Of a stretch of 9,233 nucleotides of DNA, positions 1-9,233 are shown piece after piece; position 1 is the first letter of the stretch; the number at the start of each line of letters is the position of its first letter. This DNA is from Giardia intestinalis (lineage: Eukaryota). A program made the translations under genes and the position numbers. Below the pieces are notes generated by a model. That model saw nothing but the letters and a program-made list of their open reading frames with translations, was not told the DNA's origin and did not search any database. Where the stretch lies: the NCBI GenBank assembly GCA_000002435.2, contig AACB03000014.1, one strand, 5' to 3'.

Positions 1-1
1 T

Positions 2-1386
2 GGGTTTGGGTGGATAGCTGCAATACGGTCTCCACGCCAGAAGGTTGCTTTTTCGATCGAGATGGTGGATATTATTTCTAATATCCAGGGGCCTATTTCG
101 TTAGACATAATCCACAAGGAGACGATGTCGTCGGTCTATCAAACTCCTCTTAAGGTGTTCCAGCGTGATGATGTTTATCCCTGTAGCAGAAAAGTCTCCA
201 AGACGCTTTCTCCTGGCGAATATATTGCCAGGCTCGTAGACATTCCACGGGCATCATTCACGAGGAGTCTACAATTACGGTGGTTCCGCGAAACACTGCG
301 CAATTTGGTGAATTTTCTCCCGAAGATCTGGCTAAGCACAAACATTTCCCTAGACAATGTGGATGTCACTATGACTTTGAAGATGACATGCGACACTGAA
401 GGATTCTTCCATTTCACGCAGATAAGGCGTACGGATCCTACTGTTCGCGTGAAGAGGGTTCTACGTGAACAGCCAATCCAAAATGGACCGAAGAAATAGA
501 GGCACAGGAAGCAGAGAGGGAGAAGGCCGCAGAAGCACAGTACGCGATGAACTGGCTCAGCATGAGGCAAAGCTGAAGGAACTAAACGAGGCACTTTCTA
601 ACCGCTGCAGACGCCAATAAGGACGCACTAACAAAGGACATAGCCGATCACAAGGCAAAGGCGCCGAAGAAGCAGATCGTCGTCCGCACGCCAAAGATGG
701 TTCAAGTGTCCGTTGAGGAGAAAGACTTAACTACAGAGATCACCAATGTTGATCGCAAGGTCCTTATAAATATCGGTGAAACGGCAGATCTGGCTAAGCA
801 GCTTGAGGACTTCGAGAAGTGTTGCAAGGAGGTCGACCGCAAGGCTCTCCGCTAATGAGCACGCCCGCAATACTTTTGAGTCCCTTGTCTACGATACAAG
901 AAATATATGGATTGGGGGAAGTTCGCTGAGTTTACGACTGAGGAAGACAAGAGGAAGATTATTCCTCATCTTGACGAGCACAGCGCTTTCATTAGCAGCA
1001 TCGAAGGGCCTCACCAGACCGCTGAGATCGAAGAGCGCATTCAGAGGCTCGAAAACGAAATCCGCTTCCTTCATGAGCGTAAGGAGTCCCATGATTCAGC
1101 CGACCTTCGCTTGATGAGCTTGCGCAGCAGTGTAGACTCTCTTTTAGAGAGATGGCCAGCAAATGGTGTTAATAATGAAGCTCGGGACAGGCTAACAGCA
1201 TTCTATGCAGAATGTGAGAAAGCTGTTCGACAAGCGTCTAAGCACGAGCTCGCCCCACTAACTCTTTTTGAGGATGCGGATCGACGTCTTGCAGACTTTG
1301 AAAAGGCTCTCCAGGCTAAGGCGGAGCCCGCAAAGTCCGATAATACATCTGATGCAGCTCCAAAAGAGGCTGACAAAAGTAAATGA
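2..1386 (+). CDS. Hsp70-superfamily (Hsp110/Sse1-like) chaperone, C-terminal substrate-binding beta domain plus helical lid. 5'-partial (open from the window edge), with 3-5 frame breaks between about 497 and 915; possible pseudogene
   Basis: Frame 2 is open from nt 2 to the TAG at 497-499. Its translation reads ...AAIRSPRQKVAFSIEMVDIISNIQGPISL..., which parallels Hsp110 ...AILSPAFKVREFSV...PFPISL... Further downstream, ...SANEHARNTFESLVYDTRNI (frame 2, about 846-910) matches the Hsp70/Hsp110 lid motif ...DAKNAVEEYVYEMRDKL. Then GKFAEFTTEEDKRKIIPHLDEHSAF...PHQTAEIEERIQRLENEI (frame 1, 917-1386) parallels Hsp70 ...[22 protein letters not shown]...NQTAEKEEFEHQQKELE. The continuation switches frame near 497, about 545, about 598, about 850 and about 910. 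Stop is TGA at 1384-1386. Similarity is from memory of family consensus, not a database search. Confidence 0.6.
1378..1384 (+). promoter_or_regulatory. AGTAAAT, matching the Giardia-type polyadenylation signal AGTRAAY, overlapping the chaperone stop codon
   Basis: The sequence ...gac aaa AGT AAA TGA... places the heptamer over the last sense codons and the stop. This is the position at which diplomonad poly(A) signals usually sit. Inference from a known motif. Confidence 0.4.
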
Positions 1387-1398
1387 TTGTTATCCTAC

Positions 1399-1656
1399 CT
1401 ATTTACTCATAGGAGGCTCTTTGGGCGCTATTGTGTGTACCATTGCGATTGTATCTGCACGGACAAGCACAACAGGAAGAGAAGTTGGGTCAGAACCAGG
1501 AATCTCGAGAGTGGCGTCTTGGAGGACCACATTAAAGAATTCGTCCAGTCCGACACAAGTGCCGGTGAGGACGCCGCTATGGGGGTCTACCGGCCAAAGT
1601 GTGACACGGGAGTTTGCACGGGCGAAGGCGCAGAGTTCGAGAGCAGGAGAAGGCAT
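1399..1656 (-). CDS. Sm/LSm-fold small protein (LSm5-like), 85 aa
   Basis: The translation PALELCAFARANSRVTLWPVDPHSGVLTGTCVGLDEFFNVVLQDATLEIPGSDPTSLPVVLVRADTIAMVHTI carries the Sm1 motif (G.L.GFDEFMNLVL.DA.E) and the Sm2 motif (hhhRGxxIxxh). It is collinear with LSm5 (PLELVDKCIGSRIHIV...GTLLGFDDFVNMVLEDVTEFEITPEG...LDQILLNGNNITMLV). ATG is at 1656-1654 and is preceded on the minus strand by the AT-rich AAACTTACTTTTT. TAG is at 1401-1399. The size is typical of LSm proteins. Confidence 0.6.
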   Translation of the reverse strand: MPSPALELCAFARANSRVTLWPVDPHSGVLTGTCVGLDEFFNVVLQDATLEIPGSDPTSLPVVLVRADTIAMVHTIAPKEPPMSK

Positions 1657-1670
1657 AAAAAGTAAGTTTC
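1657..1670 (-). promoter_or_regulatory. Short AT-rich initiator-like element directly upstream of the LSm-like ATG
   Basis: The minus strand reads ...GTGAAACTTACTTTTT|ATG. Diplomonad promoters are typically short AT-rich tracts abutting the start codon. Weak, inferential. Confidence 0.25.
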
Positions 1671-1806
1671 ACTCCAGCATGCTTCTTTCACTCTGCGTTG
1701 GCCGGCCACGCAGTGAACTCATCATGATGTCTGCAGATCAGCAGCCCTCTAAACGTACTATAAGACCGTTGACATTAGTGATGCGTTTATTGCATAAGTA
1801 CATATC

Positions 1807-2265
1807 TTATGTCCTTCCTCTGCAGATGAACCACCAGTAAAGGAAACCGACCAAGACACTGACGATAAACATAATCACCGTTGCACTGACCGTAACTACT
1901 ACCATCTTCCTTCCGGTAAGAGTATTGACAGGAATGCAGACACCCTTGTCAAGAATTGTATCAGACTCGCACATGCACACCCCCTGGTTCGATGAGGCCC
2001 TGGCACCGCACCCCTCTGCACACGTCCGCTGATCTGTCTGGATGTTATGATTCGAGGCGGCACACAAGAGGCACCTACCCAACTCATCGCAGGCAGCACA
2101 CCACGGCATGTCAGGGGGACACTCAGCTGCGGGCACACACTCGGATCTGTCCAGTGCCGGCAGGAGGCCCCGCTCGCACCAGCACCTCCGCACGCCGCCG
2201 GACACCTCTCCCACCACTTTGTCCCCGGTGCACTCCCCTAGGCACGACTGCCCGTCCAGGCTCAC
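1807..2265 (-). pseudogene. C-terminal fragment of a Giardia VSP-like cysteine-rich surface protein (Cys-rich ectodomain, TM helix, 5-aa tail CRGRT). The N-terminus is replaced or truncated by the 14-bp microsatellite
   Basis: The minus-strand translation ends ...[97 protein letters not shown]. It contains CxxC/CxC motifs, a hydrophobic helix of about 25 aa, and the motif GFLxWWFxCRGxx immediately before the stop, as in Giardia VSPs (canonical ...GFLCWWFVCRGKA). There is no signal peptide or start codon. Upstream, the frame reads through a 14-nt (non-triplet) repeat. Stop is TAA at 1809-1807. Confidence 0.6.
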
Positions 2266-2498
2266 GAGGACCCACCACAGAGGACCCACCACAGAGGACC
2301 CACCACAGAGGACCCACCACAGAGGACCCACCACAGAGGACCCACCACAGAGGACCCACCACAGAGGACCCACCACAGAGGACCCACCACAGAGGACCCA
2401 CCACAGAGGACCCACCACAGAGGACCCACCACAGAGGACCCACCACAGAGGACCCACCACAGAGGACCCACCACAGAGGACCCACCACAGAGGACCCA
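2266..2498. repeat. 14-bp tandem microsatellite (GAGGACCCACCACA)n, about 16.6 copies, perfect
   Basis: Direct reading gives unit starts at 2266 + 14k. The array degenerates at 2499 (...gaggacccaTTatgg). The period is not a multiple of 3, so the six-frame ORFs across it ([14 protein letters not shown] / [14 protein letters not shown] repeats) are artefacts. Confidence 0.97.
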
Positions 2499-2514
2499 TT
2501 ATGGAAGACAAAGT

Positions 2515-2586
2515 GGTCGGTGGGGGGCTCGAACCCCCGACCTTCAGCTTATCAGACTGACGCTCTACCGACTGAGCTAACCGACC
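2515..2586 (-). tRNA. tRNA-Ile(GAU): Complete tRNA gene with anticodon GAU (Ile), eukaryote cytosolic tRNA-Ile-like body
   Basis: The reverse complement is GGTCGGT TA GCTC AGTCGGTA GAGC G TCAGT CTGATAA GCTGA AGGTC GGGGG TTCGAGC CCCCC ACCGACC, 72 nt. It has a perfect 7-bp acceptor stem, D stem GCTC/GAGC with A14 G18 G19 A21, a 5-bp anticodon stem (one U-G), U33-GAU-A37, a 5-nt variable loop, and a 5-bp T stem with T loop TTCGAGC. A box is TAGCTCAGTCGG (positions 8-19). B box is GGTTCGAGCCC (positions 52-62). The discriminator A is at 2514. No CCA is encoded. The downstream T-run is weak (ACTTTGTCTT). Confidence 0.8.
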
Positions 2587-5500
2587 GCGGCCCCTCGCCG
2601 GACCCCCCGCCGGCCCAGCACCCGCCTTCAGCTTATCAGACTGACGCTCTACCGACTGAGCTAACCGACCGCGGCCCCTCGCCGGACCCCCCGCCGGCCC
2701 AGCACCCGCCTTCAGCTTATCAGACTGACGCTCTACCGACTGAGCTAACCGACCGCGGCCCCTCGCCGGACCCCCCGCCGGCCCAGCACCCGCCTTCAGC
2801 TTATCAGACTGACGCTCTACCGACTGAGCTAACCGACCGCGGCCCCTCGCCGGACCCCCCGCCGGCCCAGCACCCGCCTTCAGCTTATCAGACTGACGCT
2901 CTACCGACTGAGCTAACCGACCGCGGCCCCTCGCCGGACCCCCCGCCGGCCCAGCACCCGCCTTCAGCTTATCAGACTGACGCTCTACCGACTGAGCTAA
3001 CCGACCGCGGCCCCTCGCCGGACCCCCCGCCGGCCCAGCACCCGCCTTCAGCTTATCAGACTGACGCTCTACCGACTGAGCTAACCGACCGCGGCCCCTC
3101 GCCGGACCCCCCGCCGGCCCAGCACCCGCCTTCAGCTTATCAGACTGACGCTCTACCGACTGAGCTAACCGACCGCGGCCCCTCGCCGGACCCCCGCCGG
3201 CCCAGCACCCGCCTTCAGCTTATCAGACTGACGCTCTACCGACTGAGCTAACCGACCGCGGCCCCTCGCCGGACCCCCCGCCGGCCCAGCACCCGCCTTC
3301 AGCTTATCAGACTGACGCTCTACCGACTGAGCTAACCGACCGCGGCCCCTCGCCGGACCCCCCGCCGGCCCAGCACCCGCCTTCAGCTTATCAGACTGAC
3401 GCTCTACCGACTGAGCTAACCGACCGCGGCCCCTCGCCGGACCCCCCGCCGGCCCAGCACCCGCCTTCAGCTTATCAGACTGACGCTCTACCGACTGAGC
3501 TAACCGACCGCGGCCCCTCGCCGGACCCCCCGCCGGCCCAGCACCCGCCTTCAGCTTATCAGACTGACGCTCTACCGACTGAGCTAACCGACCGCGGCCC
3601 CTCGCCGGACCCCCCGCCGGCCCAGCACCCGCCTTCAGCTTATCAGACTGACGCTCTACCGACTGAGCTAACCGACCGCGGCCCCTCGCCGGACCCCCCG
3701 CCGGCCCAGCACCCGCCTTCAGCTTATCAGACTGACGCTCTACCGACTGAGCTAACCGACCGCGGCCCCTCGCCGGACCCCCCGCCGGCCCAGCACCCGC
3801 CTTCAGCTTATCAGACTGACGCTCTACCGACTGAGCTAACCGACCGCGGCCCCTCGCCGGACCCCCCGCCGGCCCAGCACCCGCCTTCAGCTTATCAGAC
3901 TGACGCTCTACCGACTGAGCTAACCGACCGCGGCCCCTCGCCGGACCCCCCGCCGGCCCAGCACCCGCCTTCAGCTTATCAGACTGACGCTCTACCGACT
4001 GAGCTAACCGACCGCGGCCCCTCGCCGGACCCCCCGCCGGCCCAGCACCCGCCTTCAGCTTATCAGACTGACGCTCTACCGACTGAGCTAACCGACCGCG
4101 GCCCCTCGCCGGACCCCCCGCCGGCCCAGCACCCGCCTTCAGCTTATCAGACTGACGCTCTACCGACTGAGCTAACCGACCGCGGCCCCTCGCCGGACCC
4201 CCCGCCGGCCCAGCACCCGCCTTCAGCTTATCAGACTGACGCTCTACCGACTGAGCTAACCGACCGCGGCCCCTCGCCGGACCCCCCGCCGGCCCAGCAC
4301 CCGCCTTCAGCTTATCAGACTGACGCTCTACCGACTGAGCTAACCGACCGCGGCCCCTCGCCGGACCCCCCGCCGGCCCAGCACCCGCCTTCAGCTTATC
4401 AGACTGACGCTCTACCGACTGAGCTAACCGACCGCGGCCCCTCGCCGGACCCCCCGCCGGCCCAGCACCCGCCTTCAGCTTATCAGACTGACGCTCTACC
4501 GACTGAGCTAACCGACCGCGGCCCCTCGCCGGACCCCCCGCCGGCCCAGCACCCGCCTTCAGCTTATCAGACTGACGCTCTACCGACTGAGCTAACCGAC
4601 CGCGGCCCCTCGCCGGACCCCCCGCCGGCCCAGCACCCGCCTTCAGCTTATCAGACTGACGCTCTACCGACTGAGCTAACCGACCGCGGCCCCTCGCCGG
4701 ACCCCCCGCCGGCCCAGCACCCGCCTTCAGCTTATCAGACTGACGCTCTACCGACTGAGCTAACCGACCGCGGCCCCTCGCCGGACCCCCCGCCGGCCCA
4801 GCACCCGCCTTCAGCTTATCAGACTGACGCTCTACCGACTGAGCTAACCGACCGCGGCCCCTCGCCGGACCCCCCGCCGGCCCAGCACCCGCCTTCAGCT
4901 TATCAGACTGACGCTCTACCGACTGAGCTAACCGACCGCGGCCCCTCGCCGGACCCCCCGCCGGCCCAGCACCCGCCTTCAGCTTATCAGACTGACGCTC
5001 TACCGACTGAGCTAACCGACCGCGGCCCCTCGCCGGACCCCCCGCCGGCCCAGCACCCGCCTTCAGCTTATCAGACTGACGCTCTACCGACTGAGCTAAC
5101 CGACCGCGGCCCCTCGCCGGACCCCCCGCCGGCCCAGCACCCGCCTTCAGCTTATCAGACTGACGCTCTACCGACTGAGCTAACCGACCGCGGCCCCTCG
5201 CCGGACCCCCCGCCGGCCCAGCACCCGCCTTCAGCTTATCAGACTGACGCTCTACCGACTGAGCTAACCGACCGCGGCCCCTCGCCGGACCCCCCGCCGG
5301 CCCAGCACCCGCCTTCAGCTTATCAGACTGACGCTCTACCGACTGAGCTAACCGACCGCGGCCCCTCGCCGGACCCCCCGCCGGCCCAGCACCCGCCTTC
5401 AGCTTATCAGACTGACGCTCTACCGACTGAGCTAACCGACCGCGGCCCCTCGCCGGACCCCCCGCCGGCCCAGCACCCGCCTTCAGCTTATCAGACTGAC

Positions 5501-8500
5501 GCTCTACCGACTGAGCTAACCGACCGCGGCCCCTCGCCGGACCCCCGCCGGCCCAGCACCCGCCTTCAGCTTATCAGACTGACGCTCTACCGACTGAGCT
5601 AACCGACCGCGGCCCCTCGCCGGACCCCCCGCCGGCCCAGCACCCGCCTTCAGCTTATCAGACTGACGCTCTACCGACTGAGCTAACCGACCGCGGCCCC
5701 TCGCCGGACCCCCCGCCGGCCCAGCACCCGCCTTCAGCTTATCAGACTGACGCTCTACCGACTGAGCTAACCGACCGCGGCCCCTCGCCGGACCCCCCGC
5801 CGGCCCAGCACCCGCCTTCAGCTTATCAGACTGACGCTCTACCGACTGAGCTAACCGACCGCGGCCCCTCGCCGGACCCCCCGCCGGCCCAGCACCCGCC
5901 TTCAGCTTATCAGACTGACGCTCTACCGACTGAGCTAACCGACCGCGGCCCCTCGCCGGACCCCCCGCCGGCCCAGCACCCGCCTTCAGCTTATCAGACT
6001 GACGCTCTACCGACTGAGCTAACCGACCGCGGCCCCTCGCCGGACCCCCCGCCGGCCCAGCACCCGCCTTCAGCTTATCAGACTGACGCTCTACCGACTG
6101 AGCTAACCGACCGCGGCCCCTCGCCGGACCCCCCGCCGGCCCAGCACCCGCCTTCAGCTTATCAGACTGACGCTCTACCGACTGAGCTAACCGACCGCGG
6201 CCCCTCGCCGGACCCCCCGCCGGCCCAGCACCCGCCTTCAGCTTATCAGACTGACGCTCTACCGACTGAGCTAACCGACCGCGGCCCCTCGCCGGACCCC
6301 CCGCCGGCCCAGCACCCGCCTTCAGCTTATCAGACTGACGCTCTACCGACTGAGCTAACCGACCGCGGCCCCTCGCCGGACCCCCCGCCGGCCCAGCACC
6401 CGCCTTCAGCTTATCAGACTGACGCTCTACCGACTGAGCTAACCGACCGCGGCCCCTCGCCGGACCCCCCGCCGGCCCAGCACCCGCCTTCAGCTTATCA
6501 GACTGACGCTCTACCGACTGAGCTAACCGACCGCGGCCCCTCGCCGGACCCCCCGCCGGCCCAGCACCCGCCTTCAGCTTATCAGACTGACGCTCTACCG
6601 ACTGAGCTAACCGACCGCGGCCCCTCGCCGGACCCCCCGCCGGCCCAGCACCCGCCTTCAGCTTATCAGACTGACGCTCTACCGACTGAGCTAACCGACC
6701 GCGGCCCCTCGCCGGACCCCCCGCCGGCCCAGCACCCGCCTTCAGCTTATCAGACTGACGCTCTACCGACTGAGCTAACCGACCGCGGCCCCTCGCCGGA
6801 CCCCCGCCGGCCCAGCACCCGCCTTCAGCTTATCAGACTGACGCTCTACCGACTGAGCTAACCGACCGCGGCCCCTCGCCGGACCCCCCGCCGGCCCAGC
6901 ACCCGCCTTCAGCTTATCAGACTGACGCTCTACCGACTGAGCTAACCGACCGCGGCCCCTCGCCGGACCCCCCGCCGGCCCAGCACCCGCCTTCAGCTTA
7001 TCAGACTGACGCTCTACCGACTGAGCTAACCGACCGCGGCCCCTCGCCGGACCCCCGCCGGCCCAGCACCCGCCTTCAGCTTATCAGACTGACGCTCTAC
7101 CGACTGAGCTAACCGACCGCGGCCCCTCGCCGGACCCCCCGCCGGCCCAGCACCCGCCTTCAGCTTATCAGACTGACGCTCTACCGACTGAGCTAACCGA
7201 CCGCGGCCCCTCGCCGGACCCCCCGCCGGCCCAGCACCCGCCTTCAGCTTATCAGACTGACGCTCTACCGACTGAGCTAACCGACCGCGGCCCCTCGCCG
7301 GACCCCCCGCCGGCCCAGCACCCGCCTTCAGCTTATCAGACTGACGCTCTACCGACTGAGCTAACCGACCGCGGCCCCTCGCCGGACCCCCCGCCGGCCC
7401 AGCACCCGCCTTCAGCTTATCAGACTGACGCTCTACCGACTGAGCTAACCGACCGCGGCCCCTCGCCGGACCCCCCGCCGGCCCAGCACCCGCCTTCAGC
7501 TTATCAGACTGACGCTCTACCGACTGAGCTAACCGACCGCGGCCCCTCGCCGGACCCCCCGCCGGCCCAGCACCCGCCTTCAGCTTATCAGACTGACGCT
7601 CTACCGACTGAGCTAACCGACCGCGGCCCCTCGCCGGACCCCCCGCCGGCCCAGCACCCGCCTTCAGCTTATCAGACTGACGCTCTACCGACTGAGCTAA
7701 CCGACCGCGGCCCCTCGCCGGACCCCCCGCCGGCCCAGCACCCGCCTTCAGCTTATCAGACTGACGCTCTACCGACTGAGCTAACCGACCGCGGCCCCTC
7801 GCCGGACCCCCCGCCGGCCCAGCACCCGCCTTCAGCTTATCAGACTGACGCTCTACCGACTGAGCTAACCGACCGCGGCCCCTCGCCGGACCCCCCGCCG
7901 GCCCAGCACCCGCCTTCAGCTTATCAGACTGACGCTCTACCGACTGAGCTAACCGACCGCGGCCCCTCGCCGGACCCCCCGCCGGCCCAGCACCCGCCTT
8001 CAGCTTATCAGACTGACGCTCTACCGACTGAGCTAACCGACCGCGGCCCCTCGCCGGACCCCCCGCCGGCCCAGCACCCGCCTTCAGCTTATCAGACTGA
8101 CGCTCTACCGACTGAGCTAACCGACCGCGGCCCCTCGCCGGACCCCCCGCCGGCCCAGCACCCGCCTTCAGCTTATCAGACTGACGCTCTACCGACTGAG
8201 CTAACCGACCGCGGCCCCTCGCCGGACCCCCCGCCGGCCCAGCACCCGCCTTCAGCTTATCAGACTGACGCTCTACCGACTGAGCTAACCGACCGCGGCC
8301 CCTCGCCGGACCCCCCGCCGGCCCAGCACCCGCCTTCAGCTTATCAGACTGACGCTCTACCGACTGAGCTAACCGACCGCGGCCCCTCGCCGGACCCCCC
8401 GCCGGCCCAGCACCCGCCTTCAGCTTATCAGACTGACGCTCTACCGACTGAGCTAACCGACCGCGGCCCCTCGCCGGACCCCCCGCCGGCCCAGCACCCG

Positions 8501-9233
8501 CCTTCAGCTTATCAGACTGACGCTCTACCGACTGAGCTAACCGACCGCGGCCCCTCGCCGGACCCCCCGCCGGCCCAGCACCCGCCTTCAGCTTATCAGA
8601 CTGACGCTCTACCGACTGAGCTAACCGACCGCGGCCCCTCGCCGGACCCCCCGCCGGCCCAGCACCCGCCTTCAGCTTATCAGACTGACGCTCTACCGAC
8701 TGAGCTAACCGACCGCGGCCCCTCGCCGGACCCCCCCGCCGGCCCAGCACCCGCCTTCAGCTTATCAGACTGACGCTCTACGACTGAGCTAACCGACCGC
8801 GGCCCCTCGCCGGACCCCCCGCCGGCCCAGCACCCGCCTTCAGCTTATCAGACTGACGCTTCTACCGACTGAGCTAACCGACCGCGGCCCCCTCGCCGGA
8901 CCCCCCGCCGGCCCAGCACCCGCCTTCAGCTTATCAGACTGACGCTTCTACCGACTGAGCTAACCGACCGCGGCCCCTCGCCGGACCCCCCGCCGGCCCA
9001 GCACCCCGCCTTCAGCTTATCAGACTGACGCTCTACCGACTGAGCTAACCGACCGCGGCCCCTCGCCGGACCCCCGCCGGCCCAGCACCCGCCTTCAGCT
9101 TATCAGACTGACGCTCTACCGACTGAGCTAACCGACCGCGCCCCTCGCCGGACCCCCCGCCGGCCCAGCACCCGCCTTCAGCTTATCAGACTGACGCTCT
9201 ACCGACTGAGCTAACCGACCGCGGCCCTCGCCG
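2541..9233 (-). repeat. 84-bp tRNA-derived satellite, at least about 79.7 head-to-tail copies. Each unit is tRNA-Ile(GAU) positions 1-46 plus a 38-nt GC-rich segment. It runs off the window end
   Basis: The period was measured directly: ccttcagctt recurs at 2541, 2625, 2709 and onward. The minus-strand unit is GGTCGGTTAGCTCAGTCGGTAGAGCGTCAGTCTGATAAGCTGAAGG + CGGGTGCTGGGCCGGCGGGGGGTCCGGCGAGGGGCCGC. The first 46 nt are identical to positions 1-46 of the complete tRNA at 2515-2586. The array is nearly invariant to about 8730 and has more single-base variants after that. Confidence 0.98.

Follow-up and report, generated by a model that had tools for sequence, protein, structure and literature searches.

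Giardia VSPs are defined by a signal peptide, CXXC motifs, a conserved transmembrane domain (TMD) and the C-terminal tail CRGKA, and a protein with a different tail is classed as a CRMP, for which the criteria are a cysteine content of at least 4% and at least two CXC, CXXC or CXXXC motifs (bioRxiv 10.1101/2022.03.07.483299). Genes of the VSP type carry an extended polyadenylation signal, ACTTAGRTAGTRAAYRY, within ~28 nt of the stop codon, and this motif is nearly exclusive to VSPs and pVSPs (bioRxiv 10.1101/2022.03.07.483299). The border between VSPs and HCMPs is occupied by a class of VSP-like HCMPs with short, CRGKA-like tails of five residues (YRGKA in GL50803_00101589, GRRKA in GL50803_00113512, CRRSR in GL50803_00112135 and CHKKK in GL50803_00115158), some of which have a VSP-like extended polyadenylation signal, and these are suspected by the authors who described them to be pseudogenised VSPs (bioRxiv 10.1101/2022.03.07.483299). 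Partial cysteine-rich copies are suggested in that preprint to act as a reservoir of sequence (bioRxiv 10.1101/2022.03.07.483299).

The locus described here lies in a stretch of 9,233 nucleotides from Giardia intestinalis (contig AACB03000014.1, assembly GCA_000002435.2), which we refer to in its entirety as the window. At positions 1807-2265 on the minus strand, the window carries a 5'-truncated, HCMP Group 4-like (VSP-related) pseudogene of 152 codons plus a TAA stop codon. It is very probably a dead 3' remnant, the last fifth, of a gene for a cysteine-rich type-I membrane protein of the HCMP (CRMP) Group 4 kind. The locus is real and has already been catalogued in the WB reference as pseudogene GL50803_0032701. 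Under this identifier, table S7 of Rodriguez-Walker et al. contains the fragment's exact sequence, both nucleotide and protein; the 'type I pseudogenes' sheet marks it N for ORF, N for inner stop codons and N for CRGKA, and the scaffold that carries it in the Giardia WB reference, NW_024037085.1, is unplaced (bioRxiv 10.1101/2022.03.07.483299). Its annotation class is pseudo HCMP Group 4 (Rodriguez-Walker et al. 2022). We likewise observed the characteristics of a type I pseudogene, namely cysteine-rich similarity with neither a proper start nor a proper ORF and a copy that is disabled in a second isolate, with the caveat that an in-frame ATG is found in the window outside the annotated 465 nt, either within the repeat that adjoins the fragment or ahead of it.

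Translation of positions 1807-2265 on the minus strand reads without interruption as VSLDGQSC...VLVGFLYWWFICRGRT, ending in ...GRKMVVVTVSATVIMFIVSVLVGFLYWWFICRGRT and the TAA codon. All 16 cysteines are kept in the window copy, the reading frame is intact and there are no internal stop codons. Fifteen of the cysteines fall within residues 1-120 (positions 1906-2265, minus strand), which we identify from motif counts as a remnant of a cysteine-rich ectodomain, and the remaining one is the cysteine of the tail. Residues 121-147 (positions 1825-1905, minus strand; MVVVTVSATVIMFIVSVLVGFLYWWFI) form a single C-terminal transmembrane segment by hydropathy, with a best 19-residue Kyte-Doolittle mean of 2.7. 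The cytoplasmic tail and stop codon occupy positions 1807-1824 on the minus strand, the five codons at 1810-1824 specifying CRGRT rather than the canonical CRGKA, just as the original prediction had it. The same prediction described the ectodomain as rich in CXXC, which overstates the case: cysteine makes up 10.5% of the 152 residues, and despite this there are only two CXXC motifs, alongside two CXC and two CXXXC motifs. This cysteine content, this number of motifs, one C-terminal TMD and a basic tail other than CRGKA are together what is expected of an HCMP/CRMP.

We searched 1.84 billion representative proteins exhaustively with HMMER and obtained 24 matches to the fragment. The best of these is an 805-aa protein of isolate DH (P0004, ESU37022.1), with an E-value of 1.2e-75 and 78% identity, and it aligns through its residues 651-800 with residues 2-151 of the fragment. 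Its WB counterpart (P0027; XP_001709682.1 / KAE8303754.1, 805 aa) is named HCMP Group 4, so the top sequence match is a member of that group. GL50803_100877, for which we found no literature, matches the fragment with an E-value of 1.7e-50. VSPs that end in CRGKA (...GLVGFLCWWFLCRGKA) are 33-37% identical to the fragment. Homology at the DNA level to the HCMP Group 4 gene (L010) extends from window position 2270 to position 1815 with 86% identity and stops at the CRG codons, and homology to a second paralogue (L001) begins at position 2265 exactly. The fragment shares with the 805-aa HCMP Group 4 protein its cysteine spacing, its juxtamembrane stretch and the start of its transmembrane segment, and it differs from that protein in lacking its signal peptide and ~650 N-terminal residues. 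Homology to the parent begins at residue ~651, and neither a signal peptide nor a complete, full-length ORF of the kind found in VSPs and HCMPs is present in the fragment. Because the 5' ~650 codons are missing, the fragment is a pseudogene of the HCMP family and not a member gene.

The resemblance to VSPs is that of a cysteine-rich type-I protein whose transmembrane segment ends in ...LVGFL(C/Y)WWF(L/I)CRG. The sole Pfam match is to the VSP family (PF03302), covers residues 123-151 (the transmembrane segment and tail), and scores 20.5 bits against a gathering cut-off of 31.4 bits. Only the final ~11 residues of the transmembrane segment resemble the VSP consensus, and the juxtamembrane stretch and first half of the segment match the HCMP Group 4 parent. 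We did not find in the fragment the VSP stretch GGSTNKSSGLSTG, the GAIAGI start of the VSP transmembrane segment, the G-XXX-G motif of the conserved TMD, the GGCY motif or the CRGKA tail. The original prediction had noted that the transmembrane segment lacks the usual G/A-rich start, and we can now add that its start is that of HCMP Group 4. As for the family to which the fragment had been assigned, its similarity to the Giardia VSP/HCMP sets is far above chance, as the E-value of the best match makes plain, but its nearest full-length relative is an HCMP Group 4 protein and not a VSP. The VSP-like HCMPs offer a further point of comparison, which we make from their published description: they are full-length ORFs with signal peptides, whereas the fragment is 5'-truncated.

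On the minus strand, the window presents in order a satellite, a tRNA gene, a short repeat, the fragment, a gap of 150 bp and an LSm gene, and the coordinates of these features agree with the layout that the original prediction had given. The LSm-domain gene (positions 1399-1656, minus strand; 85 aa; Pfam LSM, E 1.7e-7) is downstream of the pseudogene, and the gap that separates it from the stop codon of the pseudogene is exactly 150 bp. Its protein is identical on 20 Giardia intestinalis contigs, among them AHGT01000015.1 of isolate DH and contigs of short-read assemblies from several sequencing runs. Upstream of the fragment, a 14-bp minisatellite (positions 2266-2498; GAGGACCCACCACA, 16.6 copies with 100% matches by TRF) occupies the place of the 5' four-fifths of the gene. 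Two ideas about this array were considered and set aside. Derivation of the 14-bp unit from the parent gene at the breakpoint has in its favor only a microhomology of 4 out of 5 nt (TCCTC vs TCTTC), and the HCMP4 locus contains no copy of the unit within 2 mismatches. The Girep-1-type tandem repeats, which are complementary to VSPs (PMC1950533), were weighed as a precedent, and we found no link between them and the array.

An intact tRNA-Ile(GAU) gene (positions 2513-2586, minus strand; ARAGORN; 74.7 bits for Rfam tRNA) is located 14 nt upstream of the 14-bp repeat on the same strand, and the gene is also present in DH. Ile tRNA genes in eukaryotic nuclear genomes mostly have the anticodons AAU and UAU; the one at 2513-2586 has GAU. 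The 84-bp satellite (positions 2536-9233; ~80 near-identical copies by TRF) runs off the end of the window. Its unit consists of the 5' half of tRNA-Ile(GAU), comprising the A-box region without the T-arm, and 36 nt of GC-rich upstream spacer, and the units score 27.8 bits for tRNA against an Rfam cut-off of 29 bits, which makes them sub-threshold partial tRNAs. We found no description of this satellite for Giardia in the literature; in Entamoeba, tandem arrays linked to tRNA genes offer a reminiscent case. The suggestion that the locus occupies a subtelomere-like position is unsupported. The WB scaffold is unplaced, and in DH, where the contig is 163 kb long, the LSm side of the locus continues for at least 10 kb into housekeeping genes, namely those for HSP70, an EF-hand protein, a methyltransferase, a HORMA protein, a kinase and a kinesin. 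On the satellite side, both the window and the DH assembly end.

Isolate DH (assemblage A2, contig AHGT01000015.1) was independently sequenced and assembled, and we used it for comparison with the window. The order of features is the same in DH as in the window: satellite, tRNA-Ile, repeat, fragment and LSm. The junction between the repeat and the fragment, at which ...GGGTCCTC is followed directly by GTGAGCCTGGA, is identical base for base, so that both assemblies, made independently, show the truncation. In DH, the fragment has lost 1 bp and acquired a TAG codon, which leaves an ORF of 57 aa. Thus, the view that the fragment is a pseudogene or gene fragment holds up, given the missing signal peptide and N-terminal four-fifths in the window and the frameshift in DH. 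The unit of the short repeat is 15 bp long at the matching place in DH (L002 326-510; GGGGTCCTCTGTGGT, 12.3 copies), as opposed to 14 bp in the window (GGGTCCTCTGTGGT, 16.6 copies), such that each copy differs by one G from that of the window. This difference reflects either concerted evolution with different homogenisation in the two isolates or a systematic miscall of the G-run in one assembly, and on it depends whether the array is a multiple of the triplet. The satellite in DH also occupies the matching place (L002 1-284), with unit variants of 103 and 72 bp, and the DH contig begins there. A scan of metagenome DNA for the tRNA/repeat and repeat/fragment junctions gave 0 matches, and a further metagenome scan for junctions gave 51 matches, of which 0 aligned to window positions 1-2700, so that none of them represents this locus.

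Overall, the window and DH are 97% identical, and the differences between them are unevenly distributed. Substitutions amount to ~0.9% over positions 1-1900. Over the ~550 bp from position 1400 to position 1945, which take in LSm, the intergenic gap and the transmembrane and tail codons of the pseudogene, we observed 0 substitutions, and at position 1946 there is an abrupt jump, with 36 substitutions (11%) across positions 1946-2265. Within this hypervariable stretch, which makes up most of the ectodomain remnant, DH shows 94.7% identity to a paralogue (L011) and 88.7% identity to the window, and its nonsense codon, TAG, is common to that paralogue. In the transmembrane segment and tail, the window is 100% identical to DH and 57% identical to the paralogue. 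This mosaic of divergence points to gene conversion of the ectodomain portion with a paralogue, a probable explanation in which the paralogue, L011, comes from a metagenome, and it fits the published suggestion that partial cysteine-rich copies serve as a sequence reservoir. The recombinogenic setting that had been proposed for the locus thus gains some support, both from the contrast between the ectodomain and the flanks and from the DH copy, whose closer match is a paralogue and not its orthologue in the window. The L011 sequence is itself an HCMP Group 4-like pseudogene of the GL50803_100877 type, with frameshifts of its own (200-1006). Directly before that pseudogene, at L011 1-200, is the end of a gene with an acidic, tubulin-like tail (...EEEEDFGDEYA*).

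We calculated dN/dS values of 0.35-0.68 for the window copy against its relatives, where a value of ~1 would be expected of long neutral decay. These values are uninformative, confounded as they are by conversion from functional paralogues. The intact frame and low dN/dS fit a copy that is young or that gene conversion has refreshed, and do not of themselves prove non-function.

The 3' end of the fragment raises the question of whether its origin was in fact a VSP gene. At positions 1783-1799 on the minus strand, 8-24 nt past the stop codon, we read a putative, degenerate VSP-type extended polyadenylation signal, ACTTATGCAATAAACGC, which agrees with ACTTAGRTAGTRAAYRY at 14 of 17 positions and in which AATAAA replaces AGTRAA. 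A motif scan in table S6 likewise lists a signal for GL50803_0032701, with p 8.2e-6, q 0.0088 and the label 'HCMP pseudo' (bioRxiv 10.1101/2022.03.07.483299). The HCMP Group 4 gene, by comparison, has a tail, CRGKRRYYR, that differs from the five residues of CRGRT, and a 3' flank unrelated to that of the fragment. A basic five-residue tail and an ACTTA...AATAAAC-type signal just past the stop codon are what might remain of a true VSP gene whose former CRGKA tail had mutated from KA to RT, a change that takes only two single-nucleotide substitutions (AAG GCN to AGG ACA), and such an origin would also suit both the single Pfam match, to the VSP family, and another type I pseudogene in table S7, which ends in ...GFLYWWFICRGKA. 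We nevertheless consider a VSP origin unlikely, since everything from the ectodomain through the first half of the transmembrane segment, juxtamembrane stretch included, shows 78-86% identity to HCMP Group 4, far from the values obtained with CRGKA VSPs, since GGSTNKSSGLSTG and the GAIAGI start are missing, and since the label given both by the authors and by RefSeq is pseudo-HCMP. Among the supplementary-table entries listed, CRGRT occurs in this pseudogene only, and we found there no full-length paralogue with this tail (bioRxiv 10.1101/2022.03.07.483299). The body of the fragment is HCMP Group 4-like, its tail length is VSP-like and its polyadenylation signal may be so too; a mosaic of an HCMP4 body with a 3' end from a VSP-like gene is possible. 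The locus should be labelled a pseudogene of HCMP/CRMP Group 4 in which the 3' end is VSP-like.

Two other explanations bear on whether the truncation is genuine and whether the fragment is dead, and we regard each of them as highly improbable. A chimeric or collapsed small contig could have fused the repeat with the interior of an HCMP gene that is in reality intact, and the window does look like the whole of a small, unplaced long-read (PacBio) contig with error-rich, poorly polished ends. Compared with short-read contigs, it has 7 single-base indels at positions 242-904 and 0 substitutions, and these indels split a neighboring 845-aa gene of the HSP70 family into several overlapping ORFs. 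Further indels occur in the final ~500 bases of the satellite (after position 8700), and the presence of indels at both ends therefore indicates low-quality contig ends. For the WB reference, moreover, PacBio homopolymer frameshifts have been noted, and its assembly includes 33 small leftover contigs (<33 kb) rich in repeats and gene families (PMC7000408). The LSm-bearing short-read contigs, too, end at position 1919 or 1947 in all seven that were fetched (L003-L009). These ends, however, fall in a stretch that the locus shares, without a single difference, with the full-length HCMP Group 4 gene, and the short-read assemblies never cross the locus because the de Bruijn graph is expected to branch there. 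The C-terminal part of the fragment is not a sequencing artefact because, apart from the 7 indels, window positions 8-1919 are identical to a short-read contig (L005), leaving them free of substitutions relative to short-read contigs of other isolates. Against a false join stands the independent DH assembly, with its base-identical junction and its tRNA-Ile gene upstream. The original prediction had held that an intact gene might come to light if the repeat proved to be an artefact; because the order and the junction in DH are the same as in the window, no full-length gene is hidden in this way. With the truncation genuine, the fragment might still belong to a small functional gene. The original prediction had it that there is neither a signal peptide nor a start codon, and while a signal peptide is indeed absent, the minus strand does have an in-frame ATG at positions 2497-2499, which places it 78 codons (234 nt) upstream of position 2265. 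It opens a 230-aa ORF through the repeat, in which a hydrophobic, repeat-encoded peptide might act as a signal or anchor and changes in the copy number of the 14-bp unit might switch the frame. The absence of internal stop codons, the retention of every cysteine and the AATAAA signal past the stop codon would all suit such a gene. The open frame through the repeat is uninformative, however, because every frame of the repeat, on either strand, is open, and an in-frame ATG has a 1-in-3 probability of arising by chance. In DH, where the repeat unit is 15 bp, the frame of the ATG (MDPLWWGPLWW...) and that of the fragment (GVLCG...) do not coincide, and the fragment itself bears a frameshift and a stop codon. 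The 230-aa ORF is consequently of little weight. Furthermore, the ATG is 14 nt past the tRNA gene with no AT-rich initiator, and there is no recorded protein with the sequence of the 230-aa ORF. An exact-protein look-up with the 55-aa and 230-aa ORFs and with P0001 and P0002 found no encoding contigs. We give equally little credence to two more elaborate roles, namely a slippage-controlled on/off switch of a small cysteine-rich membrane protein, and sense RNA from read-through of the tRNA and satellite that would feed small-RNA control of HCMP Group 4 genes.

Taken as a dead remnant of an HCMP Group 4 gene, the locus suggests the following history, in which the order of events at the junction is one that we infer. 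A rearrangement would have joined approximately codon 651 of a gene of ~805 codons to a short tandem array beside the tRNA-Ile gene. The join would have been made exactly at ...TC(C/T)TC and GTGAGC, the end of the repeat reading TCCTC before GTGAGC and the HCMP4 gene reading TCTTC before the same bases. The signal peptide and ~80% of the ectodomain would have been lost in this event, and the final 120 residues of the ectodomain, the transmembrane helix, the VSP-like CRGRT tail and a putative, decayed VSP-type polyadenylation signal would have been kept. Such a remnant would have no promoter, initiator or signal peptide of its own, and it most likely is silent and not translated into a functional protein. 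It may persist as one of many partial cysteine-rich copies that trade sequence with their paralogues by gene conversion.

By itself, the locus is of little importance, as the Giardia WB genome contains more than 200 cysteine-rich pseudogenes. It does provide a clean case of a VSP/HCMP remnant, with a 5' break that can be mapped to a single base. It also indicates that 'VSP-like' C-termini are better classed by homology over their whole length than by the WWF-CRG motif alone. Between the two isolates, an ectodomain module appears to have been overwritten by paralogue sequence while the transmembrane segment, the tail and the flank are identical, and this supports the idea that partial cysteine-rich copies may act as a reservoir of sequence for the family.
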